Below, in pieces: positions 3,932 to 37,175 of a stretch of DNA of 64,000 nt (within the stretch, counting starts at the first letter, position 1; the number at the start of each line of letters is the position of its first letter). The stretch spans positions 25,040 to 89,039 of the forward strand of contig CAYJQU010000002.1 in the NCBI GenBank assembly GCA_964372495.1, written 5' to 3'. Origin of the DNA: an uncultured Gammaproteobacteria bacterium (GTDB lineage: Bacteria > Patescibacteriota > Microgenomatia > JAUYPR01). The position numbers and the translations under genes were made by a program. A model generated the notes under the pieces. That model ran no database searches. It was not told the DNA's origin and saw only the letters and a list, made by a program, of their open reading frames with translations.

Positions 3932-4068
3932 AACACTTCCAGTCCACAAACGGCGCATTACAACCAGCACAATTTTCTTAAACACCTGATAACGGAAGCT
4001 TTCAACAATCAGACTTCCTGAAAATGAACCTGCGATAGCAATGAAAAATAATGATGTAAAATACAGTT

Positions 4069-4404
4069 ATGGGCGTTGTGATTGTTGATGAAAAAGTTGC
4101 CCCAGAAGATCTTGTTATAGCACAAGAAGAATACGGGGAATATGTCAAGATTGTCATTGACATCGAAACAGAAGCAATGGCTATTGGGGGAGAGTGGCAT
4201 GCTGACGCCGAGAAAGAATTGCTTGAAGCAGGAAGTAAACAAAGTAACATGTGGGGAGGCGGAATCGATCTTACCTCCAAACGCATTGAGACTATTGCCC
4301 TCATTAACATACGACCTCGGCTCGGCAATGATAGCCAAGAAATTATTGATCCTAAAATCCGCCAGCGTTTCGTTACAATTGCCCGGAAAAAGTTTTGCTT
4401 ATGA
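4069..4404 (+). CDS. Hypothetical small acidic protein (111 aa)
   Basis: Long ORF in AT-rich DNA (about 42 percent GC by eye) with many D/E residues. Its TGA stop overlaps the ATG of the next ORF (ATGA). Confidence 0.45.
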   Translation: MGVVIVDEKVAPEDLVIAQEEYGEYVKIVIDIETEAMAIGGEWHADAEKELLEAGSKQSNMWGGGIDLTSKRIETIALINIRPRLGNDSQEIIDPKIRQRFVTIARKKFCL

Positions 4405-4667
4405 ATGTCGACATAGCCAATCTATCTGTCGACTTACGGAGAATCTCTTATTGGATCTATCGAGGTCGAACCGAGCTTGCTGACAAATTTCTAAATCAAT
4501 GTAAAGTAAAATATCGCACTATTCCTACACATATCGGTAATTATACGAACGTCTGGGATGAAGTAGAACGGATCCAGAATGCACAAAAAAAACAGATTGA
4601 GGGTGCAGAGCGTGCACTCACCCTTAGTCGGGTTCTGGAAATCTATTCACGCAATCATGCATCTTAA
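4401..4667 (+). CDS. Hypothetical small basic protein (88 aa)
   Basis: ATG at 4401 overlaps the upstream stop (ATGA coupling). K/R-rich and AT-rich. No motif recognised. Confidence 0.45.
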   Translation: MNVDIANLSVDLRRISYWIYRGRTELADKFLNQCKVKYRTIPTHIGNYTNVWDEVERIQNAQKKQIEGAERALTLSRVLEIYSRNHAS

Positions 4668-4718
4668 ATCAGAACGCTCGCTGCTATAGCTGTGAGCGAG
4701 CGCAGCGAGTCGAATCAG

Positions 4719-4789
4719 CTGCCGGGCTAGGATTCGAACCTAAATTACCAGGTCCAGAGCCTGGTTGCCTACCATTAGCAGACCCGGCA
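4719..4789 (-). tRNA. tRNA-Gln (anticodon CUG)
   Basis: Manual cloverleaf fold on the minus strand. The acceptor stem UGCCGGG/CCCGGCA has the U1:A72 pair typical of bacterial tRNA-Gln. D-stem UGCU/GGCA, anticodon stem CCAGG/CCUGG with loop CUCUGGA, T-stem/loop UUAGG-UUCGAAU-CCUAG. CCA is not encoded. Confidence 0.8.
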
Positions 4790-5016
4790 CTATAAGTTTA
4801 GAGATAACACCGAAAACTGATAAGCTTCTGGAAATATTGTACCTCATTTTTCTTCCGCAGTCTAATCGCCGTCTTCCTTACTTCCGAATGTAATCCAAGT
4901 AGCACAAGCGCATCGTTTACATCAGTAAGCAATTTGCGAATCCTATTTATAAATCATCAACAAGTAAAACAACTCCTGCTAAACCCTTTTTTCATAAAAC
5001 TGCCCCATTATGTATA

Positions 5017-6234
5017 ATGAGCGATATGGAAAGAATGCCGGGCCCTAGTGCTGACTGGGTGAGAAAAAGAAAGGGTGATAGAGTAAAAGTAGAAGTTGTT
5101 CAGGTCGACCCAAATACTGGAGTTACTACAATCTGGGCAAAACACTTGAAGTATTTTAGAGAATCAAGAATTGACCAACTTCCTCACAGTGGCTTATATC
5201 GCTGTATCTCCCGTTCTGCAAAGCCAGGAACAATTCCTGAACAACCCAGTTATGCAATCGAGGCGCATCACTCTGGAATCCATAAACATATAGCTTTGGA
5301 AAGAGCAGCTGATGGTTTAGGCTTAGGTTTAAAATTGCATATAATTGATGAATCAGAACCTAACCATTTTTTTGTAAACTATCAAGTCGACCATCTCAGA
5401 AGTATCGGGATACATCACAATTCGATGGATTTGGATGCAATTTACCAATCTTTAAAAGCTCGTCCCCTAGGTGCTAATCTTCTAGAGCTGGGAGAATTTT
5501 ATCGCAATACTGGTGCTGTTGCAACCTTTAACCCTTCTATGGGAGTAGTTGGCCCAGAGCTAGATGGGGACCAAAGGCTATATCTTGATTGGGCTCAATC
5601 TGAAACCAGATGGAAGAGAGACAAAATTATGAAAAATTGGACTGATGAGGAAAGAGCTAGAGTTATAATTGAAGTTGGTACAATCGTAAAAGGCGCTGTG
5701 ACGCAACATTTGGGACAAGATTTTCAACAACCTGATTTGGAGACATTAACTTCTGGTTTGATGGATGCTGTGTTAGTAGATTTACCTTTTGATTTTGATA
5801 CAAAAGAGGGAACTCTAGATAGATTAGCTGTTATTGCTGATTTAGTAGTTAGAAATACCGCCATGCTTGTTACAGCTAACAGACAAAAGTATGCGTATTT
5901 GAGTGATTTTACTGCGAACTTATATTTCTCACCACCAAATCGCGAAGAAATTGGTATAGAGATTGAAGATTTTGAATATGAGCCGATCCACAGAGACAGT
6001 TTAAGATTTGGAGAACGGTATAGGTATGAAGATTATGATTATTTAGTTACCAGAGATAATTCAGGCAGAGTAACTACTAGAATTGTCCGCATATTAGGAA
6101 AAACAACACCGTTACAAGTAACTGTCCGCGAGGAAATTGATTTGGAGGCATTAACCAAACTCTTAACGACTCCTGAAAGTATTGGGTGGGAGAAAGCATT
6201 AAGGGTTGCTGATATAGAACTTCAAAAAGGTTAA
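5017..6234 (+). CDS. Hypothetical protein (405 aa), AT-rich orphan gene
   Basis: 1.2-kb uninterrupted ORF in roughly 38-42 percent GC DNA, flanked by roughly 58 percent GC DNA. A TATAAT box at 5002-5007 precedes it. The start could be ATG 5017 or ATG 5035, the latter after GGAAAG. It has a His-rich segment HHSGIHKH and no recognisable domain. Confidence 0.6.
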   Translation: MSDMERMPGPSADWVRKRKGDRVKVEVVQVDPNTGVTTIWAKHLKYFRESRIDQLPHSGLYRCISRSAKPGTIPEQPSYAIEAHHSGIHKHIALERAADGLGLGLKLHIIDESEPNHFFVNYQVDHLRSIGIHHNSMDLDAIYQSLKARPLGANLLELGEFYRNTGAVATFNPSMGVVGPELDGDQRLYLDWAQSETRWKRDKIMKNWTDEERARVIIEVGTIVKGAVTQHLGQDFQQPDLETLTSGLMDAVLVDLPFDFDTKEGTLDRLAVIADLVVRNTAMLVTANRQKYAYLSDFTANLYFSPPNREEIGIEIEDFEYEPIHRDSLRFGERYRYEDYDYLVTRDNSGRVTTRIVRILGKTTPLQVTVREEIDLEALTKLLTTPESIGWEKALRVADIELQKG

Positions 6235-9716: not shown

Positions 9717-11067
9717 CTAAGCGAATGTCGACACGCTCCATATCACGGGGAAATAGCGATGCTTCTCGGATATTTTTTAATTTGAGTATTTGCATGGTGA
9801 GGCGCTCGAGTCCAAAGGAAAACCCTCCCTCTGGAGGCATCCCGTACCGAAACGCCTGTAGATACAGCTCAAATGACTTCGGATTCATGCCACGCGACTC
9901 TATAGCAGCCACTAGTTGCGCGTAATCGGTGACCCGGAGGCTGCCGCTTGCCCACTCCAGTCCTCTACAGAGAAGGTCGCAGCTTAACGAGTACTCCGGC
10001 TGCTCTGGATCGGGATGGGTGTAGAATGGCTTTTTGGCAGTAGGAAAGTGCGTAACGGTGACAAAATCAGATCCATGCTCCCGCAGACTCCACGCGCATA
10101 AATCTCGCTCGTCCTCTGGAGTTAAATCTGGCTCTTTTCGATTGTCCCGCCTGGTTTTTTGGTACAGAAGTTCCTGTGCTTGCCTGAGAGTCAGGCGTGG
10201 AATTTTCTTACCAACCACAGGAGCTGTTACCCCAAACTGGACCAGGATTTCTTTACACGCTGTATTCACTCCCTCTACCAAGTCGATTGCTGTTTGCTCA
10301 AGCTCGTCGAGCAAGTTTTCAAAATGTTCGATAAACCCAATCTCTATATCCAGTTGGGTAACCTCAGAAAGATGTCGGGTGGTCACTGAAGGCTCAGCGC
10401 GGTACGCGTGCGCAATCGTGAACACCCGCTCAAACACTCCCACCATGATCTGTTTGTATAGCTGCGGACTTTGGGCAAGATATGCTTCTTTCCCATAATA
10501 GGAAAGCTCGAAGACTTCTGCGCCTCCCTCAGTCGCGGACGCGACGATGGTAGGTACCACAATTTCCGTACAGTCTCTGCGCAACGCTGACTCTCGGAAG
10601 CTGGTAAGCAGTGCCGCTTGCAGCGCAAAAATAGGACGGACACTTGAGTGTCGCAAGCTGAGGGTGCGATAATCAAGTAGTGTAGGGAGGGTTACTTCAA
10701 GACTCTTGCCTCCGGTGTCGAAGGGTAGACTTTCTGCTTTGGCAATGAGCCGTAGCTCTTCGGCTTGCAGCTCCACCGTTCCCGTAGCTAGTTTCGGGTT
10801 TACCAATTTCTCGGGGCGCTCCTTGACCGTTCCCGCCACGAGCACAACGTCTTCGGGCCGCAGACTCCCAGCCTGCTCTCCACTCAGTACAACCTGGAGA
10901 ACCCCGGTGCGGTCACGAAGATCTACAAACACAATCTTCCCGTGGTCCCGTCGTACTTGTACCCAGCCGTATACTGCAACTTTTTTGCCCACACGCGCAA
11001 GCGTCTCCCGAGCATACATGCGTTTCACAAAGGTCATTGTACCAAAACACCCCGTATTGACAAGCAA
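9706..11067 (-). CDS. aspS: Aspartyl-tRNA synthetase, archaeal/eukaryotic-type (AspRS2; could be non-discriminating)
   Basis: Class II aaRS with an N-terminal OB fold (GWV..RDHGKIVF), a QSPQLYKQ motif and a GGFSFGLERL motif 3. Its roughly 450-aa length fits the archaeal-type AspRS/AsnRS. Confidence 0.8.
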   Translation of the reverse strand: MLVNTGCFGTMTFVKRMYARETLARVGKKVAVYGWVQVRRDHGKIVFVDLRDRTGVLQVVLSGEQAGSLRPEDVVLVAGTVKERPEKLVNPKLATGTVELQAEELRLIAKAESLPFDTGGKSLEVTLPTLLDYRTLSLRHSSVRPIFALQAALLTSFRESALRRDCTEIVVPTIVASATEGGAEVFELSYYGKEAYLAQSPQLYKQIMVGVFERVFTIAHAYRAEPSVTTRHLSEVTQLDIEIGFIEHFENLLDELEQTAIDLVEGVNTACKEILVQFGVTAPVVGKKIPRLTLRQAQELLYQKTRRDNRKEPDLTPEDERDLCAWSLREHGSDFVTVTHFPTAKKPFYTHPDPEQPEYSLSCDLLCRGLEWASGSLRVTDYAQLVAAIESRGMNPKSFELYLQAFRYGMPPEGGFSFGLERLTMQILKLKNIREASLFPRDMERVDIRLDEK

Positions 11068-11217
11068 GCGCTCCTTATGCTAAAGTCCCCCTCATTATGT
11101 TGCGTACCGACGCACAGTATGCCTTCCAGTTTATTAAGCTCCACGTGAGTGGGGCTCTTTTGGGAGGCAGAAAGCGCACGCACATATAAGTAAGCAAAAG
11201 AATACGGTATAAAAACA

Positions 11218-11247
11218 GGAGCCTCTCAAGAGAAGAGAGGCTTTTTT
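11218..11247 (+). terminator. GC-rich hairpin GCCUCUC/GAGAGGC followed by U6, with an A5 tract on the 5' side (bidirectional terminator-like)
   Basis: 7-8 bp perfect stem with a 7-nt loop and TTTTTT at 11242-11247. GTATAAAAA lies 5-10 nt upstream and AAAGGAGAG plus ATG 11275 lie downstream. Confidence 0.5.
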
Positions 11248-11274
11248 AGTGCATGAAAGGAGAGTGAGAACAGG

Positions 11275-11511
11275 ATGGAAAGAGAAAGATATGGGTTAGC
11301 CCAGATGCGTTCGCTGGACCCAGTTGAGTGGCAACAGGCATGTGCGACCATGCGTGAGAAAGCAGCTAGGCAGCGCACATTGAATAGGGTTAGTTCGCCA
11401 GAAGATGCTGCAGCTCCCCGGCCGGCGACTACTCCATCGTCTGGAAACGAAGCAGTAAACCTTGGCGGCAAAGACCCTTACCGCCCGATTGGGAGGGTGC
11501 GTGTCTGGTAA
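11275..11511 (+). CDS. Hypothetical small protein (78 aa)
   Basis: AAAGGAGAG ribosome-binding site 10-18 nt upstream of the ATG. It lies downstream of a promoter-like TATAAA and the hairpin. No homology recognised. Confidence 0.35.
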   Translation: MERERYGLAQMRSLDPVEWQQACATMREKAARQRTLNRVSSPEDAAAPRPATTPSSGNEAVNLGGKDPYRPIGRVRVW

Positions 11512-11716
11512 AGTACCATCATGGAGTATCACTCCAGTACGCTACCATGGGCTCTTGACAGAACACTGCTGGAGTGATATATTCCCGTTCATTCAAATGA
11601 ATACGTGGCATTTCATTACCATTCTTCCGCTTATGGTGCTCCGAGCAATCGGAGCTACTTTGGGAGGGAACAGGTAAGAAAATAGTCGTATAAAAGTAAA
11701 AGGATAAGAAGTAAGA

Positions 11717-11746
11717 AACCTCCCAAAGAAACGGGAGGTTTTTGTT
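11717..11746 (+). terminator. GC-rich hairpin (AACCUCCC/GGGAGGUU) plus U-tract, paralogous to the element at 11218
   Basis: 8-bp stem, 8-nt loop, then TTTTTGTT. GTATAAAAG is upstream and GAAAGGAAG plus ATG 11761 are downstream. Confidence 0.5.
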
Positions 11747-11760
11747 GGTGAAAGGAAGTA

Positions 11761-12087
11761 ATGATGCAGTACGAAAGACGGCCCAGTAAAAAACCAACTG
11801 CGTTCGAGCGGTATATAACATTTGTGCTCTTTACATGTCATACCATAAACGACGTATCCTCTACCGAGACGCGTCGTGCAATGCTCCATCATGAAGCGGC
11901 AGACGAATATCGGAGGGCTTATAACGTTGGTCTTCCGAAGGCTTACCAAATGGTCAGGGCAGATCTTGATAAAGTTTTAAGATGTGACCAATCGAACGGT
12001 TTTGCACCAATAGCAATGCCATCAGAAAAATGGCGAGGTCAGAATAGAAACAACTATTGCACCCACGATATAAGTGGGGTACGCTAA
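11761..12087 (+). CDS. Hypothetical small protein (108 aa)
   Basis: Ribosome-binding site GAAAGGAAG 5-13 nt upstream. It is the second copy of the promoter-hairpin-smallORF arrangement. Confidence 0.35.
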   Translation: MMQYERRPSKKPTAFERYITFVLFTCHTINDVSSTETRRAMLHHEAADEYRRAYNVGLPKAYQMVRADLDKVLRCDQSNGFAPIAMPSEKWRGQNRNNYCTHDISGVR

Positions 12088-12302
12088 AAAGCATGGCAGC
12101 ATCTCCGGACCGACCATCGTCAATAACTTATTTTAGGAGAGGCGGGGCAGAGTCACCCGCTCGTTTGCGCGGGCACTTTAACAGCCTTGCGGTACATGCG
12201 GCGCGTCAGAAGGACACATATACAAGAATCCCTCTGACTCGACGTCGCGAGATTTCCGCTTCTCGCCTTGACAACCACAGAGGTACTCCTCATGATAGAA
12301 GT

Positions 12303-12938
12303 GTGAGCGACCTGTTTGACGAAGAGACCCCTATTACAAAATCACCGGTGCAGCGTACTCGTCGCAGAGGGTTCCTGGGAACGGCGGTAAAGATCGCGGG
12401 GGGTGCCGGTGTCGCTCTGGCTGGAGGTGTGACAATAGCAAGAAATATCGAACCAGCAATGGCCAAATGGTACGAGGTTACGGGAGATCCACGTTTTTTC
12501 CAAGCCAAAGCGCGAGAACTGTTCTCCTCGCCTCCTCCCAATGCACCACTTCTTTCCGACATTTCAATAGCCACAGTATTCCCTGCAGAAAACATCTATA
12601 AACAACAGTACATTAAGGGTGCAACCCTGCGTGCCGCTCCCATTATCTCAGGAAATGCTATTGGAGAAACACAAGCAATTCCCCGAGGGACAAGGCTGCC
12701 GGAAGGTTACATCATTGAAGATGGGTTTGATGAAGTTATAGGGGATAACCGATGGTTCGTTTTTCCTCTCGCGCAGCTCCTTAAAGAAAACCCTACCATC
12801 AAGATAGATCGATCAAAAATTCCCGCAGGTACCGAATTTACATTTATCCATCTAGCAAATACAAGCGTGTGGGGAACAGAAAAGATAACTCACATTACGC
12901 CGATTCGTTGGCGACACTTACCCTCCGCACGTCCCTGA
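12303..12938 (+). CDS. Putative Tat-exported protein (start uncertain)
   Basis: Twin-arginine motif TRRRGFLG followed by a hydrophobic h-region AVKIAGGAGVALAGG. The track ORF starts at 12057 but has no in-frame ATG. GTG at 12303 or 12348 would place the Tat signal at the N-terminus. Confidence 0.4.
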   Translation: MSDLFDEETPITKSPVQRTRRRGFLGTAVKIAGGAGVALAGGVTIARNIEPAMAKWYEVTGDPRFFQAKARELFSSPPPNAPLLSDISIATVFPAENIYKQQYIKGATLRAAPIISGNAIGETQAIPRGTRLPEGYIIEDGFDEVIGDNRWFVFPLAQLLKENPTIKIDRSKIPAGTEFTFIHLANTSVWGTEKITHITPIRWRHLPSARP

Positions 12939-14526
12939 TTTTTAACTGCACGCGTGTATTACCATTCCAGACATCTTGTAACACGCTGTAGGCAATATCC
13001 AGCAAATCTCCTGGAGCAAGTATGGAAGCAAGCTCCCCGTGCCCAAACCCAATTGCGTCAACAGACACGCGATCAGATGGGGCAGACACCGTTAGTTTGA
13101 GGTGTTTATTGCCATTGCCTACGGCACGCACACGCTCAACCTGTAGTCCCGAAGACATGAATACCGGCTCGGGATTGCCTATCCCAAACGGTTCCAATAC
13201 TCGCATTCGCTCATACAACTCCCGCCCAACAAGCCCCACCGGAATCAAGGCATCTATCAAAAGGGTACGCGTCAGAAGTTCTGGGGCCAGTTTTTCTTGA
13301 GCTATGCTCATAAGGCACTCGCGCAGCGCCGGGATATTGCCCGTTTCGATGGTAAAACCTGCCGCCATGGGGTGACCTCCTACATCAACAAGCAAATCTT
13401 TTGCCGATCGAAGGGCTTCAACAATATTGAATCCTGCCACTGAGCGAGCTGATCCTTTGCTGATAGCTGCCCCTTGGCTAATCACCACTGCCGGACGATA
13501 ATGCTGCTCGACAAGCCTTCCTGCAATAAGGCCAATAATCCCCTGTTGCCATGACGGACTTGCCATGACAATTACCCTGTCAGTATCGACATTGACTCGT
13601 TTTATCTGTTCAAGCGCATGTTGCACCCCTTCTGTGGTAAGTTGCTGGCGCCGCGCGTTGGCAGTACACAGAACCTGGGCAAGCTGACGCGCCCGTGCAC
13701 CATTGGTGGTGCACAAAAGCCGCAGCGCGTCAAGGGCATGGTCCAGCCGTCCCAACGCGTTTATGCGCGGCACTAGGAGGTGCCCGACCTCATACGTGGA
13801 AAGCTGCCCAACGCTGAGACCGCTCGCCGCAATAAGCTCCTGGAGTCCGAATGACGACGTCGCGTTGAGTACTGAAAGTCCCAGTCGAGCCAAGATACGA
13901 TTTTCTCGCGTAAGCGGAACAAGATCCGCGATTGTAGCGGTGGCCACAAGATCAAGATACTTCTGCGGATATCGATGCTTAGTCAGTACTTGTGCCAGCT
14001 TCCACGCCACTGCTGCCCCGCATACGTTCGTATCATGCACAATCGCGAAAGCGTCCGGTAATTCCGGTGGCGCTACGTGATGGTCTGTAATGATAACATC
14101 AACAGATTTCTCTCGCGCATGTTCTACTGCCTCTATGCTTGTGATACCACAATCAACCGTGATAATAAGTTGTGTGCCGTCCCCGATTAATCGATCAACC
14201 GCTTCTTTCTTTAACCCATACCCTTCTTTCTCTCGATGCGGGATATAGGGCAGCACCTTGGCACCAATACCCCGGAGGGTCTGCCACAACAGCGCAACTC
14301 CGCAAATACCGTCCGCGTCATAATCAGAGTAAATCGCTATCTGCTCGTCGCGTTCAATCGCGCGCTGAATGCGCTTTGCGGCTTTCTGTATACCGGGTAG
14401 ATCAAAACGAAGGATTGAAATTGAAGCTTTTGTATCAATACCCCGCTTGGCAAGGAGCAGTGCTAATAAACTCTCCTGATCTTTCGCTTCATCCCCATCT
14501 GTCAGTGACCATACGTACCGTCGCAT
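12895..14526 (-). CDS. recJ: Single-stranded-DNA-specific exonuclease RecJ
   Basis: DHH-family motifs DYDADGI, VDCGITS and IITDHH, and a DHHA1-like C-terminal half. Confidence 0.9.
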   Translation of the reverse strand: MRRYVWSLTDGDEAKDQESLLALLLAKRGIDTKASISILRFDLPGIQKAAKRIQRAIERDEQIAIYSDYDADGICGVALLWQTLRGIGAKVLPYIPHREKEGYGLKKEAVDRLIGDGTQLIITVDCGITSIEAVEHAREKSVDVIITDHHVAPPELPDAFAIVHDTNVCGAAVAWKLAQVLTKHRYPQKYLDLVATATIADLVPLTRENRILARLGLSVLNATSSFGLQELIAASGLSVGQLSTYEVGHLLVPRINALGRLDHALDALRLLCTTNGARARQLAQVLCTANARRQQLTTEGVQHALEQIKRVNVDTDRVIVMASPSWQQGIIGLIAGRLVEQHYRPAVVISQGAAISKGSARSVAGFNIVEALRSAKDLLVDVGGHPMAAGFTIETGNIPALRECLMSIAQEKLAPELLTRTLLIDALIPVGLVGRELYERMRVLEPFGIGNPEPVFMSSGLQVERVRAVGNGNKHLKLTVSAPSDRVSVDAIGFGHGELASILAPGDLLDIAYSVLQDVWNGNTRVQLKIRDVRRVSVANESA

Positions 14527-14560
14527 CGCGAACTTCTATTGTACAAGGTATACTTTACCT

Positions 14561-15913
14561 ATGGCAAACAACGCGCTTCCGCTTCCAGCGTCCATCCGCA
14601 ACGTTTTTACTACTCTTGCCGACAACGGGCACCGAGGATTCGTGGTGGGCGGGGCGGTGAGGGATCTTTTGACTCAGAAGGAGCCGCACGACTGGGACTT
14701 CGCAACCGACGCGAGACCTGACCACATTCTAGGTATCTTCCCCGGCAGTTTCCTCAATAACCAATACGGGACTGTTGGGGTGCCACTTCCTCAGCCAATC
14801 GGTAATGCAGAAATAACCACATTCCGGAAGGAAGGAAAGTATCAGGACTTTCGACACCCGAGCACGGTCGAATGGGGCCGCACCATCGAGGAAGATCTTG
14901 CGCGCCGAGATTTTACCATAAACGCGATGGCTGTCGGCCAAGACGGGCAGGTCGTTGACCCATACCATGGACGGGAAGACCTGGAGGCTGGCTTGATTCG
15001 AACGGTGGGAGATCCGCATACACGCTTTTCCGAGGACGCACTGCGGCTACTGCGGGCGGTGCGGCTGTCCGTTGAACTTGGCTTCACTATCGAACCAGCC
15101 ACCCTCCTTGCCGTACAAGAAAATGTTCACCTGATACAACACGTCTCGGGAGAGCGCATCCGCGATGAGCTCCTCAAGATGCTTGCTGCCCCAACCGAAG
15201 CGTCTGCCAACAGCTTCTTCTTGCTCCGGGAAGTTGGACTTCTTGCACATATACTACCAGAATTGGAGCACGCGTTTGCGCAACCGCAGGCGCGGCACCA
15301 TACACATGACGTTGGCACGCATCTCGTGCTCTCTTTAAAACACTGCCCCTCACCGGACCCCATCGTCCGACTTGCAACGCTCCTACATGATATTGGCAAG
15401 CCGGCAGTCGCTCGTAAGGAGGATAACTTGATTACGTTTTTCAACCATGAGGTGGTCGGAGTGCCCATCGCCCGTCGCATCCTAGATCGTTTGCATGTTA
15501 CCCGCAAAGATCGAGATCGCATTCTCAATCTTATCCGGTGGCACCAGTTCACAGTGGATGAGCACATTACCGATGCTGCGGTTCGGCGTTTCATTCAGCG
15601 GGTGGGTGTGGAAAACGTCAACGATATGCTTGACCTGCGCATTGGGGACCGATTGGGAGGTGGGTGCCGGGAAGCGGAAAGCTGGAGACTTAGACTGTTC
15701 AAAAAGCGTATTTGGGAGGTTCAGCATCCACCTCCGACAGCGGCAGATCTGGCAATCGACGGCCACGACGTGATGCGCGAGTTCAACCTGCAACCCGGAC
15801 CACAGGTTGGGAAAATCCTCAATACGCTGTTCGAAGAAACAGTAGACGACCCGAGTAAGAATAACCGAGAATACTTACTGCAGCGCCTGAAGGAGTTGAA
15901 AAAACACGAGTGA
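14561..15913 (+). CDS. cca: CCA-adding tRNA nucleotidyltransferase with HD domain
   Basis: GGAVRD..DWD polymerase-beta head motif plus an HD domain (HTHDVGTH...LLHDIGK). Confidence 0.85.
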   Translation: MANNALPLPASIRNVFTTLADNGHRGFVVGGAVRDLLTQKEPHDWDFATDARPDHILGIFPGSFLNNQYGTVGVPLPQPIGNAEITTFRKEGKYQDFRHPSTVEWGRTIEEDLARRDFTINAMAVGQDGQVVDPYHGREDLEAGLIRTVGDPHTRFSEDALRLLRAVRLSVELGFTIEPATLLAVQENVHLIQHVSGERIRDELLKMLAAPTEASANSFFLLREVGLLAHILPELEHAFAQPQARHHTHDVGTHLVLSLKHCPSPDPIVRLATLLHDIGKPAVARKEDNLITFFNHEVVGVPIARRILDRLHVTRKDRDRILNLIRWHQFTVDEHITDAAVRRFIQRVGVENVNDMLDLRIGDRLGGGCREAESWRLRLFKKRIWEVQHPPPTAADLAIDGHDVMREFNLQPGPQVGKILNTLFEETVDDPSKNNREYLLQRLKELKKHE

Positions 15914-15935
15914 ATCAAAGGAACAGTCACGAAAA

Positions 15936-16436
15936 CTAACTAGTGGAAGATGCCGCTTGGAAACGAGCCATCAACCGCAAGCCGCCATCGAATATCTCTT
16001 GTATCGGCCGGGAGATAGTTTCACTGACGCGGACAAATCTACCGGGGGCTATTCGAGCATCGACACGCCATCGTCTCATAAACGTTCCCTCAAGAACAGC
16101 TGCGGGGTCTCCTGCAGAAACCCCTTTCCCTGTACTGTTCACTCTAGCCACCAATATACACTCGATCAGACTAGCAATAGCCAGCTCCACCTCGAGCTCC
16201 CGAACTTTCTTGTCATACGGAACAACTTCATTGTACATGCCCGCACGTTTCATCCCATTGCTTTGCTTCCTACAGTCATTCAAGAGCTCCCTGATTTCTA
16301 CTATGACTGCAGCAAGGCCTCCTAGAGTCGCGTCAGGAAATTTAGGACTGGGATACTCCGACACAACCGCTGGTCTCGCCCGAACTTCTCTCACGAGCGC
16401 TGACGGATCAGGAAATTTTCGTTCATACCGCGCCAT
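15936..16436 (-). CDS. Hypothetical protein (166 aa)
   Basis: ORF with a palindromic element about 80-110 nt upstream of its start. No motif recognised. Confidence 0.4.
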   Translation of the reverse strand: MARYERKFPDPSALVREVRARPAVVSEYPSPKFPDATLGGLAAVIVEIRELLNDCRKQSNGMKRAGMYNEVVPYDKKVRELEVELAIASLIECILVARVNSTGKGVSAGDPAAVLEGTFMRRWRVDARIAPGRFVRVSETISRPIQEIFDGGLRLMARFQAASSTS

Positions 16437-16516
16437 AGGTATTAGACAAAGATTATATCAGAAATCTGACGGCACACTATTAAAATGTCGACCCTCCGCT
16501 TGCTACTGTCCAACAT

Positions 16517-16544
16517 TTGTTCAATATACTGATATATTGAACAA
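16517..16544. repeat. 28-bp perfect palindrome TTGTTCAATATA-CTGA-TATATTGAACAA (copy 1 of 2 in the window)
   Basis: Its 26-bp core is identical to the copy at 26846-26875. It ends 4 nt before the secF stop codon, a position typical of REP-like elements. Confidence 0.7.
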
Positions 16545-16547
16545 TCA

Positions 16548-17438
16548 TCATGCAGTGCGTGTTGCGCGCTCGTGCCATACGACCAATAGCGGTGCCGCGT
16601 TGAAGATGCTCGAGTAGGTACCAGAAGTAATGCCTATCAGAAGTGCAGCTATAAACCAGCGGATGGACGCACCACCGAACAGAAGCAGTGCCAAAAGGAC
16701 TAGCAGTACCGTCAGTGAGGTCATCAACGACCGGCCGAACGTCTGCACAATGGAGTCGTTTACCACCTGGGCAAACGGTAAGGTAATGTGCCGTCTTATG
16801 TTCTCCCGAATACGATCAAACACCACAATCGTATCGTGCACCGAAAACCCGATGACCGTAAGGAGGGCGGTAACAAACAACGCATCTACCTCTGCATGAA
16901 AGTAATACCCGAGTATAGCCATCACCCCCACCAGCACTAACACATCGTGACAAAGGGCCACAATCGCACATACGGCAAAACGGATGGAAGAGGCAGGTTT
17001 GGGTACACTGCGAAACGCCCACGCGATATACAACATAATTGCAAGCGAGGCAAACAGAAACGCAAGCAGTGCATTTTTCTGCAGCTCCTTACCAATGGTG
17101 GGTCCCACTGTTTCAAATCGCAGCTGCTTCACAGCACCATAGCGACTGCTCAAATCAGCAGCCACCTCGTTCCTCTTGGCTTGATCAATCACTTTCGTGC
17201 GCACGAGTACTTCCTGCTTACTGACTCGCTGAATACTGCTGACGTCTACCCTACGCTGCCGAAAGATCTCTTCTATACCCCCTGTATCGGCCGGCTGCTC
17301 AAACTGCAGCTCAAGCAAGCTCCCTCCGGTAAAGTCCATCCCGAGCCGCACGCCGTACACGATAAGAAAAAACAATCCGGGCAAGATGACGACGCCAGAG
17401 AATACAAAGTACCAATACTTAAAACGCAGCAGGTTCAT
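16548..17438 (-). CDS. secF: Protein translocase subunit SecF
   Basis: About 6 transmembrane segments and SecF-like sequence (GMDFTGG..., C-terminal RND-like bundle). Confidence 0.9.
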   Translation of the reverse strand: MNLLRFKYWYFVFSGVVILPGLFFLIVYGVRLGMDFTGGSLLELQFEQPADTGGIEEIFRQRRVDVSSIQRVSKQEVLVRTKVIDQAKRNEVAADLSSRYGAVKQLRFETVGPTIGKELQKNALLAFLFASLAIMLYIAWAFRSVPKPASSIRFAVCAIVALCHDVLVLVGVMAILGYYFHAEVDALFVTALLTVIGFSVHDTIVVFDRIRENIRRHITLPFAQVVNDSIVQTFGRSLMTSLTVLLVLLALLLFGGASIRWFIAALLIGITSGTYSSIFNAAPLLVVWHERATRTA

Positions 17439-17770
17439 GACTTTCTCTGCTCAAGGGCTTGACGAATCTGTTCGAGCAACTGTTCTTGGTAGACACGAGT
17501 GGCAGCAGAAGCTTGCGTTTTAAAGTCAGGAATATGCTTCTCAAACCACTCGAGTGCGCCATCCGAACTCTCCTGGCTCATGAGTATATCAGCCATGCGC
17601 TGCTGATCCTCAACTGAGAGCTTTTCCAAAATCCATTCCAGCAAATGATCCTGCAGCAGGATCGACAATTTCAAAAGCACGAGCTCGGTTTCCTGGGGCG
17701 AGAGACCAAGGTTTGCCACGTGATCCGCAAGGTTCTCAGAGTCAATGATGTGGTCTTTCAGCGATTTCAT
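17435..17770 (-). CDS. Hypothetical small acidic protein (111 aa)
   Basis: ORF with 4-nt stop/start overlaps to both neighbours, lying inside the secD-secF operon. Confidence 0.45.
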   Translation of the reverse strand: MKSLKDHIIDSENLADHVANLGLSPQETELVLLKLSILLQDHLLEWILEKLSVEDQQRMADILMSQESSDGALEWFEKHIPDFKTQASAATRVYQEQLLEQIRQALEQRKS

Positions 17771-18831
17771 GCGTTGCCTGCAACATGGACATCGCTAATA
17801 CCAAGATCAACCGGGCCTGGCGGAAGCCTGTTTTCCTGATCATCAACAAATAACACAATCACACCCCGTTTTTGCGCCCCATCTTCCAGTTTCATATAAT
17901 CCATCAGCTCCGGAGAACCTCCAAACTTCTTACCTGTCCAGTCCGCCGGTCCTGCATCGCCAATCACTGCGATGACAGCTCTTTTTGTCGTAGGATCAAT
18001 GACAATTACTTTACGCCACTTAAACCAGGTATACAACTCATTGGTGCGCTCTTGCCATCCGGGGGCAAGAAAGGTCTGTGCAGCAATATACCACTTTTCC
18101 CGCTGAAGTGCCTGAGGGGTAAGCGCTGCTTTACTCGTGGCAAAATATCCCCAGGCAGAAAGCCCTGGCGCAATCCCCCTGCCAAGCACACGCACTTGGT
18201 TTCCTATTCCCGATGCGTGCTCGGCCAATGAGTCCCCAGGATATCTGTATAAATGCTGTTCTGCCCCAATAAGACCATAGGTCACGTTCAACCGATTCTC
18301 CTCAAGCTCAGCAGCAACTGGCACCGACACTATTTTTGAGAGCAGTTGTTCGAGCGTGGCCTCCTCACCTGGCGTCAGTGCATGGGTAAGGGTAGGCAAT
18401 ATCTGAGCCAGTGCTGCCTTTGCCTCATCTGGGCTTGCCTGGGCAAGCGTGGGGATAGGCACCACCGTCCTCCTCGGATCATACCCAATAGTGGAACGGA
18501 GCAGTGGGGGGCCGCGGATAGGCGGTGCTTGGCCGGTCACGGTGACTGGAGCAACGATTGCAAGCGTACCTATGAGTGCGGTTGCAATCACTTTACGATT
18601 GAGCGCAGCGCGAATATCACCAAACGTCCAGCCCTTTTGCGCAAGATAGGCAAAAAATTCTCGATACCTGCGCCGCAGCTTCCGCTCCTGCTTTTCAATG
18701 AGCTTATCAAGGTGCGAAAGGATGTCCTGGGCGCCTTCGCTGAGGACCCGCTCGCTTCGGCGAAACAAGCGCCGACTGACCCGTTTCCATCTTTTGATTC
18801 GTCGTAGTACTTCCGGCAGACTCTCATCCAT
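17767..18831 (-). CDS. 3D/DPBB-domain protein (MltA/YuiC/RlpA-like putative cell-wall-binding or lytic protein)
   Basis: C-terminal KVIVIDPTTKRAVIAVIGDAGPADWTGKKFGGSPELMDYM resembles the 3D (three-Asp) double-psi beta-barrel signature. N-terminal basic region plus a transmembrane segment. Confidence 0.5.
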   Translation of the reverse strand: MDESLPEVLRRIKRWKRVSRRLFRRSERVLSEGAQDILSHLDKLIEKQERKLRRRYREFFAYLAQKGWTFGDIRAALNRKVIATALIGTLAIVAPVTVTGQAPPIRGPPLLRSTIGYDPRRTVVPIPTLAQASPDEAKAALAQILPTLTHALTPGEEATLEQLLSKIVSVPVAAELEENRLNVTYGLIGAEQHLYRYPGDSLAEHASGIGNQVRVLGRGIAPGLSAWGYFATSKAALTPQALQREKWYIAAQTFLAPGWQERTNELYTWFKWRKVIVIDPTTKRAVIAVIGDAGPADWTGKKFGGSPELMDYMKLEDGAQKRGVIVLFVDDQENRLPPGPVDLGISDVHVAGNA

Positions 18832-25451: not shown

Positions 25452-27608
25452 TTAACTATCTGCTACAATCTTCCTAAAAAGATACAGGGCTGTCAATGCG
25501 CTTACCGCAAGCCCTAGCTTAAACGTCCATGGATCATAGATAAAAGTGACCGTGTGCTCCCCTTCTGGTACCTGCACGGCACGGAACGCGATATTGGCGG
25601 GGTAAATAGGCACTTCCCTGCCATCCACACTCGCTTTCCATCCGGGGTAGAAGGAATCAAGCAGCACCAACCACGCATCCTGAGTTGCATTCGCCCGTAC
25701 TTCTACCCGCTCCGGCCCTCTGACCAACACCTCGGCTTTCAGGGGCTTAACCTCTAATCCTGGTAGGGGTTTAACCCCTAATCCGCTGGATTCGAGGATC
25801 ACACCGCGAGTGTAGTCAAAGCCGGATTGCAGAAGCGCAAGGGCTGACGGCGCGTCGGGCACGAATTGGGCGTGAGGCACAAGGTACGCCCGCGGCAAAG
25901 CTGTGCTCCACGGCCGCACACCACCAGGATACTCCTGGTCCAGGATTGCTCGTGTTGCGGTCAAATCGAGAAACGCGCGTGCTCGGTCAGGTTCTTGCAG
26001 CAACAAAAAATAATCCTGGCGATTCTCAAGGTAGGCGGAGGCAAACAGTTCATAGCGGCGTGGTCGCAGCACCTCATATCCCCGCGGATCGGCAAGTCCG
26101 TATAACATGCCGATGTTCGGGGGAAAGTAGCCGTCACGGGAAATGACTCTGCCGTCGCCTTGCAATGCCTGCAACCTAACAATTTCCGCAGTCACCGAGT
26201 ATACGTACTCCGGCTGGATACTGGGGTAGTGCTTGGAAATCCACACGCTCCCGTCAGCAATGACCAGAAGGCACAATCCCGCTCCCACCATCCATCCCCA
26301 CCTTGCAAGGGGACGCTTTGCAAACGCAAGAGCCGCACATCCTGCGATCATAAACACCAAGAAATAGTGCACGCGATGATTGTTGGCCATACGCATGATC
26401 GGAAGGAAGTTCACTAGATGGAGCACTGGCGCCTCAAACGCCACTCCTACGCTCAGAAGCCCAAGTGCGAGCAGTATCTTGGCTCGTACGTCCGTAAGTA
26501 ACCATCTCAGCGACAGAAATAAGGTTATTGTCGCCACAATACTCACATAGCCAAGCTGCTCGTTGTAATTGGTAAACGGCAGCTCATAGTGTCCCAACGC
26601 TGGACTGCCAAACGCGTACGGAGAGGTGAGCGCTTTGAGGGTGGGCACGTACAGTCTGAGGTGCTCCCAGTTTCCTAACAACCCAAATGCGATACTGTCA
26701 CGCACTGGGGTCTGTCCCAAATAGCTTCTCCCTACCTCTGATGCACTGCTCTGCAAGATGTATTCTGCCATAGGAAATAACAGCGGCGCTACCAGCAGGG
26801 TACCGCACACTATGCCCCCAATGAGCGTCCGCAGACCACGCGACGCATGTTCAATATACTGATATATTGAACATGACTCACGAATGCTTAGTCGCACGTT
26901 CGTACCACTACACCACAAACGTAAAGTGCCATAGATCGTGCTAAACGCAATGATCTGAAACGATGTCTCTATATGGCCGGGAAGCCAGACCAGCGCCACC
27001 GCGCCGGAAAGCACAAGTAAGGAATACACCCCTCCAGTAATCACCCGCTCTATCGCCCATAGCACAAGGGGGAGCCACAACAGCACCGCAGTCACTGGCC
27101 AGATCGCCCAGGCAACCACAAACTGTGCGGTCAGTACCACAAAACCGCCTAACAGAGCCGCCCAAAAGTGATTGGTCAAACGCCTCAACCACAGGAAGGT
27201 AAAAAATCCACACAGCGTCAGTCGCACTATTACCAAAAATAACGGTACGTGCTCAACGGGAAGGGGCAGTATCGCAGCGAGCACTATCGTGGGATCCAAA
27301 AACCCCGACTGCCCATTGGCTACATAGGGCATCCCGCCCCATGTATAGGGATTCCACAGCGCGAGTTCTCCCGAACGCCAACGCTCCAGGTTATACGCAA
27401 GGTAGGGATAAATTAGCGCTGAAACGTCGCCCAGTAAAAAATTGCGAGAATCTGGCAAGTCCGCCGGGCGGTGCAACGTCCATGGGTAGACATCATAGAA
27501 ATGTACTGCCGGAACGAGTGCCAATCCCTTACTGAGTGGTTGCCAGAAGTAGAAACACGCAACCAATGCATACGCGCCGAGCGCCGCAAGGGCCGGAACT
27601 GCTTTCAC
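25452..27608 (-). CDS. Large polytopic membrane protein, YfhO/ArnT-like (putative membrane glycosyltransferase family)
   Basis: 718-aa ORF with at least 12 hydrophobic helices and a C-terminal soluble domain. It contains an in-frame 30-bp palindromic repeat that encodes SCSIYQYIEH in a hydrophilic loop. Confidence 0.55.
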   Translation of the reverse strand: MKAVPALAALGAYALVACFYFWQPLSKGLALVPAVHFYDVYPWTLHRPADLPDSRNFLLGDVSALIYPYLAYNLERWRSGELALWNPYTWGGMPYVANGQSGFLDPTIVLAAILPLPVEHVPLFLVIVRLTLCGFFTFLWLRRLTNHFWAALLGGFVVLTAQFVVAWAIWPVTAVLLWLPLVLWAIERVITGGVYSLLVLSGAVALVWLPGHIETSFQIIAFSTIYGTLRLWCSGTNVRLSIRESCSIYQYIEHASRGLRTLIGGIVCGTLLVAPLLFPMAEYILQSSASEVGRSYLGQTPVRDSIAFGLLGNWEHLRLYVPTLKALTSPYAFGSPALGHYELPFTNYNEQLGYVSIVATITLFLSLRWLLTDVRAKILLALGLLSVGVAFEAPVLHLVNFLPIMRMANNHRVHYFLVFMIAGCAALAFAKRPLARWGWMVGAGLCLLVIADGSVWISKHYPSIQPEYVYSVTAEIVRLQALQGDGRVISRDGYFPPNIGMLYGLADPRGYEVLRPRRYELFASAYLENRQDYFLLLQEPDRARAFLDLTATRAILDQEYPGGVRPWSTALPRAYLVPHAQFVPDAPSALALLQSGFDYTRGVILESSGLGVKPLPGLEVKPLKAEVLVRGPERVEVRANATQDAWLVLLDSFYPGWKASVDGREVPIYPANIAFRAVQVPEGEHTVTFIYDPWTFKLGLAVSALTALYLFRKIVADS
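26846..26875. repeat. 30-bp perfect palindrome CATGTTCAATATA-CTGA-TATATTGAACATG (copy 2 of 2)
   Basis: Shares its 26-bp core with 16517-16544. The outermost arm positions differ from copy 1 but change on both arms, so the palindrome is preserved. It lies in-frame inside the YfhO-like CDS. Confidence 0.7.
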
Positions 27609-36705: not shown

Positions 36706-37137
36706 TCAGAAGAAGTCATGTGTGCTCTCGTCCGGACTGCCAAATACGAAGCGGCTACCAGTCGGCCGTGCGTCGGGCAGGATTTTTTTAGGACGCCCAA
36801 CTCGCCTTCTCCGGCGATGATCAAGCAGTGGATACGCCATGCGGACGGCGCGCCACAGCGCACCATTTCCCTCTCGCAAACGCCTAATGGTACGCATAAC
36901 CGTATCAGTGCCCACCCCTGCCAAATCTGCAATCTCCCGCATGGGTTTTTCTTTTGCAACCAAACATGCCACATACCAGCGCCGTTTCATCATGCGGAAC
37001 TCTGAGTGGGTAAGTAAATCCTGTAATAGGTCCTGGAATCCTTTTGCATTCACCGCGGTCTTCGATAATACATCGAACAAGAGCTGTGTATCTCTACGAT
37101 ACGCAGTATGAAGCTCTTCTGTATCTGGCTTTGTCAT
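36706..37137 (-). CDS. TrpR-like YerC/YecD-family DNA-binding protein
   Basis: EFRMMKRRWYVACLV..MREIADLAGVGTDTVMR matches the YerC/YecD helix-turn-helix. The start is moved to ATG 37137 because the upstream codons are encoded by a 15-bp inverted repeat. Confidence 0.55.
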   Translation of the reverse strand: MTKPDTEELHTAYRRDTQLLFDVLSKTAVNAKGFQDLLQDLLTHSEFRMMKRRWYVACLVAKEKPMREIADLAGVGTDTVMRTIRRLREGNGALWRAVRMAYPLLDHRRRRRVGRPKKILPDARPTGSRFVFGSPDESTHDFF

Positions 37138-37138
37138 T

Positions 37139-37175
37139 ATGTATGGATACATAGTGTACTTATGTATCCATACAT
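37139..37175. promoter_or_regulatory. Inverted repeat ATGTATGGATACATA-N7-TATGTATCCATACAT (15-bp perfect arms) directly upstream of the yerC-like start
   Basis: Seen directly. It sits 2 nt upstream of the ATG, where an operator or translational hairpin would sit. Confidence 0.45.

Follow-up and report, generated by a model that had tools for sequence, protein, structure and literature searches.

Repressors of the TrpR family such as YerC, which in Firmicutes is HisR, and TrpR bind palindromes of about 20 bp and are often autoregulated, as is reported for roughly half of hisR genes and also for trpR (PMC9413887). The TrpR consensus is TGTAcTnGTnnACnAgTACA (PMC9413887), and its TGTAC...GTACA ends are common to one of the sites described below (L019). 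In some bacteria of the candidate phyla radiation (CPR) a "trp repressor gene" heads an operon of tRNA-Trp and TrpRS (PMC5370408). Transcription regulation in the CPR is almost unexplored, and each organism has few regulators. We found no paper on the TrpR-like subfamily considered here or on the twin palindromes that accompany its gene. Two palindromes in a 64-kb stretch of DNA are, on the sequence evidence set out below and with a probability of about 0.6, extra operator copies of one such regulator, P0001: an ordinary element in an undescribed arrangement.

The window, meaning the whole 64,000-nucleotide stretch that was analysed, contains two perfect palindromes. Copy 1 (16517..16544; core 16518-16543) is 28 bp long, TTGTTCAATATA-CTGA-TATATTGAACAA, with perfect 12-bp arms, and copy 2 (26846..26875; core 26848-26873) is 30 bp long, CATGTTCAATATA-CTGA-TATATTGAACATG, with perfect 13-bp arms. 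Both contain the same 26-bp core, TGTTCAATATA-CTGA-TATATTGAACA, in which perfect 11-bp arms are separated by 4 nt; this spacer, CTGA, is asymmetric and reads the same way on the + strand in each copy. An initial annotation had described two perfect palindromes with a common 26-bp core, and its coordinates and sequences both hold. Its observation that the outermost bases differ jointly on both arms is likewise borne out, a T.A pair in one copy standing against an A.T plus a C.G pair in the other, with complementarity kept. The pair is far beyond chance: allowing three mismatches at most, the 11-N4-11 pattern has exactly two matches in the window and none in 100 dinucleotide-preserving shuffles. 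Neither isolated half-sites nor degenerate copies (up to four mismatches) were found in the 64-kb window. A combined Rfam and tRNA scan of the window returned a tRNA-Gln only, with no match at either palindrome.

Copy 1 lies in the 111-nt spacer between the stop codon of secF (16548..17438, minus strand; Pfam SecD_SecF_C, E=3e-58, plus Sec_GG) and the ATG of ORF166 (15936..16436, minus strand), which encodes a hypothetical protein of 166 aa with no Pfam match and is an ORF call here and also a gene call in L015 and L016. The palindrome had been placed 4 nt past the secF stop codon (16548-16550), which is correct when counted from the 26-bp core; counted from the 28-bp palindrome the distance is 3 nt. 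Copy 1 had also been assigned an operator-like position about 80 nt from a divergent gene. The distance from copy 1 to the ORF166 ATG is 80 nt; however, this gene is co-directional with secF and downstream of it, not divergent, because both are on the same strand. ORF166 appears to have an extended -10 of its own, TGATATAAT, about 20 nt ahead of its ATG and about 60 nt beyond copy 1, as read from the sequence. Consensus scans detected neither a sigma-70-like promoter nor an intrinsic terminator overlapping copy 1. The palindrome is kept in a 99.57%-identical strain variant (L015) and also in L016. An exact-protein look-up with SecF retrieves strain-level variants only, and a strain divergence of 0.43% is too small to serve as a real test of constraint on copy 1.

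Copy 2 is situated within a coding sequence, a circumstance on which the initial annotation was silent. Its host gene (25452..27608, minus strand) encodes a 718-aa YfhO-family membrane protein (Pfam YfhO, E=3e-16) and is intact, since homologs align on both sides of the palindrome. Copy 2 is in frame, 733 nt inside the gene, and codes for about CSIYQYIEH in an indel-rich variable loop of the protein. Its 30 bp are exactly 10 codons and, judging from the sequence, three of the six reading frames are open. Around 25 residues are missing at this loop in a 57%-identical ortholog (P0005, on the syntenic contig L017), and unrelated DNA occupies the equivalent position in a 46%-identical ortholog (P0006, L018). 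The orthologs are without the site, so copy 2 is a lineage-specific acquisition and not a conserved operator. Consensus scans again revealed no sigma-70-like promoter or intrinsic terminator overlapping the palindrome. Both window copies contain an extended -10-like motif, TGATATATT, on the + strand, antisense to secF and yfhO and unaccompanied by a -35.

Where else does this palindrome occur? When GTDB representative genomes, one per species, were searched with the pattern TGTTCAATAT-N6-ATATTGAACA, nine loci matched, of which seven are stand-alone, unrelated occurrences that have other spacers and come from unrelated taxa. A metagenome scan added only L010 and L011, and a scan of viral sequences gave no match; the window itself is not among the matches in these public collections. 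At L008 (51% G+C) two exact copies of the 26-mer stand 431 bp apart, centre to centre, around an ORF of 146 aa, P0001. At this gene (L008 and L012) the upstream copy ends at the ATG and the downstream copy lies inside the last codons. The same layout is present in L001, L010 and L011 (about 35% G+C), with near-identical palindromes and a bracketed homolog that is 56% identical. In the species-representative MAG there are two copies only, both at the regulator gene.

The window and the 20-kb L012 sequence that carries P0001 can be related to each other. Window SecF and P0001 both occur in run ERR3478686 and in its sibling runs ERR4904390 and ERR4904391. Tetranucleotide frequencies of the window and L012 correlate at r=0.93, compared with 0.81-0.89 among thirds of the window and 0.68 for a family-level relative, and no marker genes are duplicated between the two. 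On the shared runs, the composition and the lack of duplicated genes, L012 and the window are therefore probably one organism or very close relatives. A tblastn search of the window with P0001 found no homolog beyond the translated palindrome itself. Together the two sequences (about 84 kb) contain four perfect copies, identical at 26/26 positions including the spacer, and no degenerate ones. In other lineages, some 110 kb of sequence surrounding the regulator gene is free of orphan copies; given this and the two-copy count of the representative MAG, the window's two copies are unusual. Because the four copies are identical and there are no weaker sites, they look more like the product of recent copying than like an evolved regulon. 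The outcome that, by the initial annotation, would have pointed to a conserved operator and away from a mobile repeat is borne out by half: copies are scarce and linked to a regulator, but the site is missing from yfhO orthologs.

The L008 MAG is titled "uncultured Coxiellaceae bacterium", while the regulator family is otherwise named from Microgenomates and Parcubacteria groups and the gene content is CPR-like, of the small-genome type; the taxonomic label is probably wrong. Cumulative GC skew declines almost monotonically from position 1 to 64000 of the window, reaching -2.75, and the minus strand carries most of the genes. One-directional GC skew has been reported for the Microgenomates order UBA1400, e.g., Collierbacteria and Beckwithbacteria (PMC7143001), and the skew of the window agrees with the CPR affinity to which the regulator family points. 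Base composition also departs locally, with a G+C content of 0.41 at 4001-6000 against about 0.52 elsewhere. This low-G+C region holds the tRNA-Gln (4718-4789), several palindromes (4675-4709) and an ORF of 405 aa (5017-6234) without a Pfam match.

Taken alone, P0001 matches Pfam Trp_repressor with E=6e-5 and 23.4 bits, below the 27-bit gathering threshold. Most of its relatives have a precomputed PF01371 match and are named "YerC" or "Trp family transcriptional regulator" at source, and NCBIfam assigns yecD_yerC to 13 and TrpR to 10 of 30 family members. A profile built from these 30 members matches the solved YerC/HisR-like structures 3FRW, 3KOR and 3G1C (E 4e-9 to 2e-7). An AlphaFold model of P0001 has a pLDDT of about 90 over residues 11-100 and superposes best on 3KOR, 3FRW and 3G1C, followed by E. 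coli TrpR (target-normalised TM 0.6-0.8). By profile and model, the P0001 ORF is a member of the TrpR/YerC family with a predicted helix-turn-helix fold. The family comprises 1,484 clusters at 50% identity (E<=1e-10), and its named members come from Microgenomates, Levybacteria, Woesebacteria, Paceibacteria and Yonathbacteria. The P0001 frame runs through the downstream palindrome (L012 10402-10441) to end in the C-terminal tail ...GVQYTDILNTKK, and that of P0126 likewise passes through its palindrome (L023 1494-1536) into the tail ...SVKYINILNTGTKR. Besides copy 2 in yfhO, these tails are another instance in which the palindrome is translated.

The bracketing of the regulator gene is common to the family. 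In all nine independent, diverse loci the end of one palindrome falls at -12 to +8 nt relative to the ATG, and its twin is found close to the stop codon, at a centre-to-centre distance of 431-476 bp. The palindrome is TGTACGATATATTAATATATCGTACA in L019, ATCATACGATATATCGTATGAT in L021, ACCTTACGATATATCGTAAGGT in L022, of the ATGCATTAATGCAT type in L020 and L024, and CAGTATACTA-GTGTAT-TAGTATACTG in L025. Across the nine loci its sequence thus changes with the protein lineage as its position relative to the gene stays constant, and the twins of L024, like those of L025, are told apart by mirrored double substitutions. A bracket in 9/9 loci that covaries with the protein points to a cognate, autoregulatory operator. 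Promoter scans place a -10 inside the upstream palindrome, in L012 (9959-10001; TTGACA-16-TATACT, 11/12), L010 (TTGACA-17-TATAAT, 12/12) and L023 (TTGACA-16-TATATT, 11/12). This predicted arrangement is the one classically seen at promoters under autorepression. The distances between the twins, 431-476 bp, show no common helical phase.

The position of the downstream twin is also of interest for copy 1. In five of the nine lineages the twin starts -2 to +12 nt from the end of the regulator stop codon, and copy 1, just past the secF stop codon, takes up the same position. The orientation of the spacer on the sense strand is opposite in the two cases, at secF and at the regulator 3' end.

In L012, L019 and L023 the regulator gene belongs to a conserved tRNA-Thr/Tyr/Thr ... 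tRNA-Trp-secE-nusG cluster, with the downstream palindrome 40-70 nt before tRNA-Trp (L012 10405-10548; L019 10417-10554; L023 1494-1658). This adjacency suggests a possible tie of the regulator to tryptophan or tRNA-Trp. In L021, L022 and L025 the gene downstream of the regulator is not tRNA-Trp, and in the first two of these the regulator gene lies between those for 2-Hacid_dh and FBP aldolase. As a promoter of tRNA-Trp the downstream twin fits poorly: a TATAAT stands about 25 nt past the end of the palindrome, too far for the TTGAAC of the palindrome to act as its -35, and a weak 9/12 promoter match occurs in L023 only. No his or trp biosynthesis genes were seen next to the loci examined. 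Two of the loci have neighbours of another kind. Immediately behind the yerC-like gene of L019, a gene for a large serine recombinase (10494-12014) overlaps tRNA-Trp, and roughly 8 kb of hypothetical genes come after it; the region (10483-18700) resembles an element that integrated at tRNA-Trp. In L020 a tyrosine integrase and a giant protein with an LPD38 domain are encoded just upstream of the yerC-like gene.

The window has a TrpR-family gene of its own (36709..37137, minus strand; PF01371, E=2e-11), which hhalign relates to the yerC-like family with a probability of 95%, and which adjoins genes for HU, RNase Y, RecX and RecA. A 37-bp perfect inverted repeat (37139-37175), ATGTATGGATACATA-AGTACAC-TATGTATCCATACAT, consisting of two nested 14-bp palindromes, stops 1 nt ahead of its ATG and is without a downstream twin. 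Since a palindrome abuts the ATG of this gene too, the layout recurs in this genome. This gene, too distant from P0001 for the tblastn search to pick up, is associated with a different palindrome and is therefore not the cognate regulator of copies 1 and 2.

What could the window copies then be doing? On the reading that we favour, the palindrome would be the cognate DNA-binding site of P0001, a small (146 aa), probably dimeric regulator of the TrpR/YerC(HisR) family encoded outside the window. We infer this pairing from the co-localisation of protein and palindrome and from their covariation. Regulators of this family usually need a co-repressor to bind their operators specifically. At the P0001 gene the upstream copy is predicted to hold the -10 and ends at the ATG, leaving an mRNA that would be almost leaderless. 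Because the -10 lies inside this copy, a bound dimer would occlude RNA polymerase and bring about autorepression. The initial annotation had offered a dimer-binding operator as an alternative to a mobile repeat, and it is this alternative that gains ground, since on a contig that probably belongs to the same organism a TrpR-family gene has the same palindrome overlapping its promoter. Overlap with a promoter is found at the regulator's own gene only and at neither window copy. With no promoter at the window copies and copy 2 intragenic, a classical operator role is not evident there. The most economical mechanism at these sites is occupancy, in which the bound regulator might act as a roadblock or insulator past secF and before the ORF166 promoter, and inside yfhO. 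Alternatively, it might gate weak antisense transcription from TGATATATT against secF and yfhO. The orphan copies would most likely have arisen by duplication or insertion of operator sequence, and their copy-specific palindromic flanks possibly by hairpin-templated mutation, i.e., template switching at a quasi-palindrome. The role assigned to the window copies is the weakest part of this account.

The main rival to occupancy by the regulator, and an unlikely one in our estimate, holds that the window copies are neutral by-products, ectopic duplicates of the operator (made, e.g., as short templated insertions at breaks) that are tolerated and that the regulator may bind without consequence. 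That they match the regulator-gene copies perfectly, spacer included, agrees with this, as do the lack of a promoter at either, the lack of orphan copies in other lineages, and the placing of copy 2 in an indel-rich loop that is without it in orthologs and in which 30 bp can be accommodated as 10 codons with half of the reading frames open. Set against this is the state of both copies as intact perfect palindromes, copy 1 being unchanged at 0.43% strain divergence (too small a test), and the parallel between copy 1, 3 nt past a stop codon, and the downstream twin in 5/9 lineages hints at a function of position. That parallel can also be cited in favour of an RNA element. If transcribed, the palindrome gives an A+U-rich stem of 12-13 bp with a 4-nt loop, and folding of the 61-nt RNA contexts yields -19 to -24.5 kcal/mol, with z between -3.4 and -5.2; on the minus strand, the copy 1 hairpin can be extended outwards by pairs rich in G.U, an extension judged not significant. 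The hairpin, and not a protein site, might on that view serve as a 3' stabiliser or a terminator without a U-tract after secF and the regulator gene, a few nucleotides from the stop codon at copy 1 and, in several lineages, at the downstream twin, and copy-specific complementary flanks are the outcome to be expected of selection on a stem. This reading is nonetheless very improbable. The stem is AU-rich with no U-tract and the terminator scan is empty, the upstream copy at the regulator gene overlaps a -10 and would mostly go untranscribed, ribosomes would unwind the stem of copy 2 in its translated ORF, and the spacer is reversed in sense orientation between secF and the regulator 3' end. If the palindrome acted purely as an RNA hairpin, neither the copy that overlaps a promoter nor the one inside yfhO would be accounted for.

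The initial annotation had favoured a mobile family, REP-like or MITE-like, and this we now consider the least probable reading. A genome with REPs has tens to hundreds of them, imperfect in sequence and with a GTAG/CTAC head, and they often form inverted doublets on either side of a Y1 transposase gene. A palindromic repeat propagated by a transposase or by its own hairpin, with the regulator-gene copies as two more insertions, would account for identical copies at unrelated loci, among them a lineage-specific in-frame insertion into yfhO, and for flank palindromy that differs copy by copy. A few family members, moreover, weakly match HTH regions of IS630, IS21 and IS481 transposases (E 8e-4 to 1e-2). 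The claim of mobility is nevertheless contradicted by a very low copy number, four perfect copies in about 84 kb with none degenerate, and by the lack of both a direct target-site duplication and a REP-type GTAG head. Nor did a Pfam search of 48 of the 67 window ORFs of at least 90 aa find the Y1 transposase (RAYT) or TnpB that the initial annotation had proposed to look for, or any other transposase. The bracketed gene is single-copy and syntenic within lineages (L012/L019/L023; L021/L022), and since the palindrome covaries with the protein over deep divergence, vertical co-evolution and not mobility is indicated. Several other identities were discarded. A MITE, in which terminal inverted repeats enclose some 50-500 bp of internal sequence between direct target-site duplications, does not agree with a whole element of 26-30 bp whose flanks are inverted-complementary and not direct repeats, and an intrinsic (Rho-independent) terminator, with its G+C-rich stem and U-tract, does not agree with an A+T-rich stem that no T-run follows and that the scan passes over at both copies. 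A dif/lox-like recombination site (11-4-11 or 10-6-10, in direct orientation) has no adjacent recombinase in the window or L012, the recombinases of L019 and L020 belonging to elements integrated beside the regulator gene, and was also rejected because recombination between the twins would delete that gene. We know of no LexA/SOS-box, NrdR, Rex or CIRCE site with this half-site and spacing.

One property of the palindromes is left over. At the eight sites with a perfect-dyad core, symmetry runs on into copy-specific flanks, adding 19 complementary pairs: 1, 2, 2 and 1 in this organism, 4 and 2 in L021, and 6 and 1 in L022, where the longest perfect dyad, flanks included, reaches 38 bp. The chance that all eight sites gain at least one pair is 1.5e-5 and that of a total of at least 19 pairs 3.6e-7; sites with imperfect cores show no flank extension. 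The earlier proposal that it is symmetry that is kept, and not primary sequence, is thereby upheld, the complementarity past the core being statistically real across lineages. A perfect dyad that continues into copy-specific flanks is unexplained by a dimeric HTH protein alone. The symmetry of the core fits such a protein and the arbitrary symmetry of the flanks does not, which leaves selection for a hairpin or cruciform, or a mutational bias. Quasi-palindromes are known to be perfected and extended by intramolecular template switching, a mutational bias, and in our view template switching is a more likely source of the flank symmetry than selection for a hairpin or cruciform. A more far-reaching possibility, which we think improbable, is that protein and palindrome form a hairpin- or cruciform-dependent system that spreads by template switching or insertion and seeds regulator-gated roadblocks or antisense promoters (TGATATATT). 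Were this so, the palindrome that brackets the gene throughout a large CPR family (about 1,500 clusters at 50% identity) would have given rise, in this lineage, to further perfect copies, one of them an in-frame insertion into a membrane-protein gene, and the system might depend on tryptophan or tRNA-Trp status.

Under the preferred reading of the window palindromes as extra operator copies, a suspected mobile repeat becomes two orphan predicted binding sites, and copy 2 a rare case of a perfect putative operator carried in frame in a membrane-protein gene. The main value of the analysis lies in the family-wide twin-palindrome bracket and in a protein-DNA pairing open to test. A large family annotated merely as "YerC" or "Trp family regulator" is now tied to a precise predicted DNA site, so that the specificity of the regulator can be tested with one protein and one 30-bp duplex, giving a route to its targets. 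The copy-specific palindromic flanks further provide a clean natural data set for the self-extension of perfect palindromes.

Among described systems, REP/RAYT elements share with these sites a short palindrome right after a stop codon, as at copy 1, and the potential to form a hairpin. They differ in that here there are four perfect copies without a GTAG/CTAC head, one of them intragenic, and the bracketed gene encodes an HTH regulator. In the lac system the operator O1, at the promoter, is complemented by the auxiliary operator O2, which lies within lacZ, 401 bp further down, and the LacI tetramer loops the DNA between them. The bracketed regulator genes similarly pair a promoter operator with a second site 431-476 bp away, and copy 2 is intragenic like O2. 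However, one lac operator is strong and the other weak, while the two sites of each pair here are equally perfect, and the TrpR-like protein is predicted to be dimeric, unlike the tetrameric LacI.

The CPR trp repressor operon is alike by description, a TrpR-like gene being followed by tRNA-Trp in L012, L019 and L023, although no palindromes or operators are described in that account (PMC5370408). HisR and TrpR are small all-helical HTH regulators of the same fold that likewise have a dyad-symmetric site at their own promoter. P0001-type proteins are longer, at about 133-146 aa compared with about 100, and have MPHISKRKLD conserved at the N terminus and one more helix at the C terminus; their predicted operator core spans 22-26 bp rather than 18-20 bp. 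Also unlike HisR and TrpR, a second copy stands at the 3' end of the regulator gene in 9/9 loci, and the copies in the window lie away from promoters.
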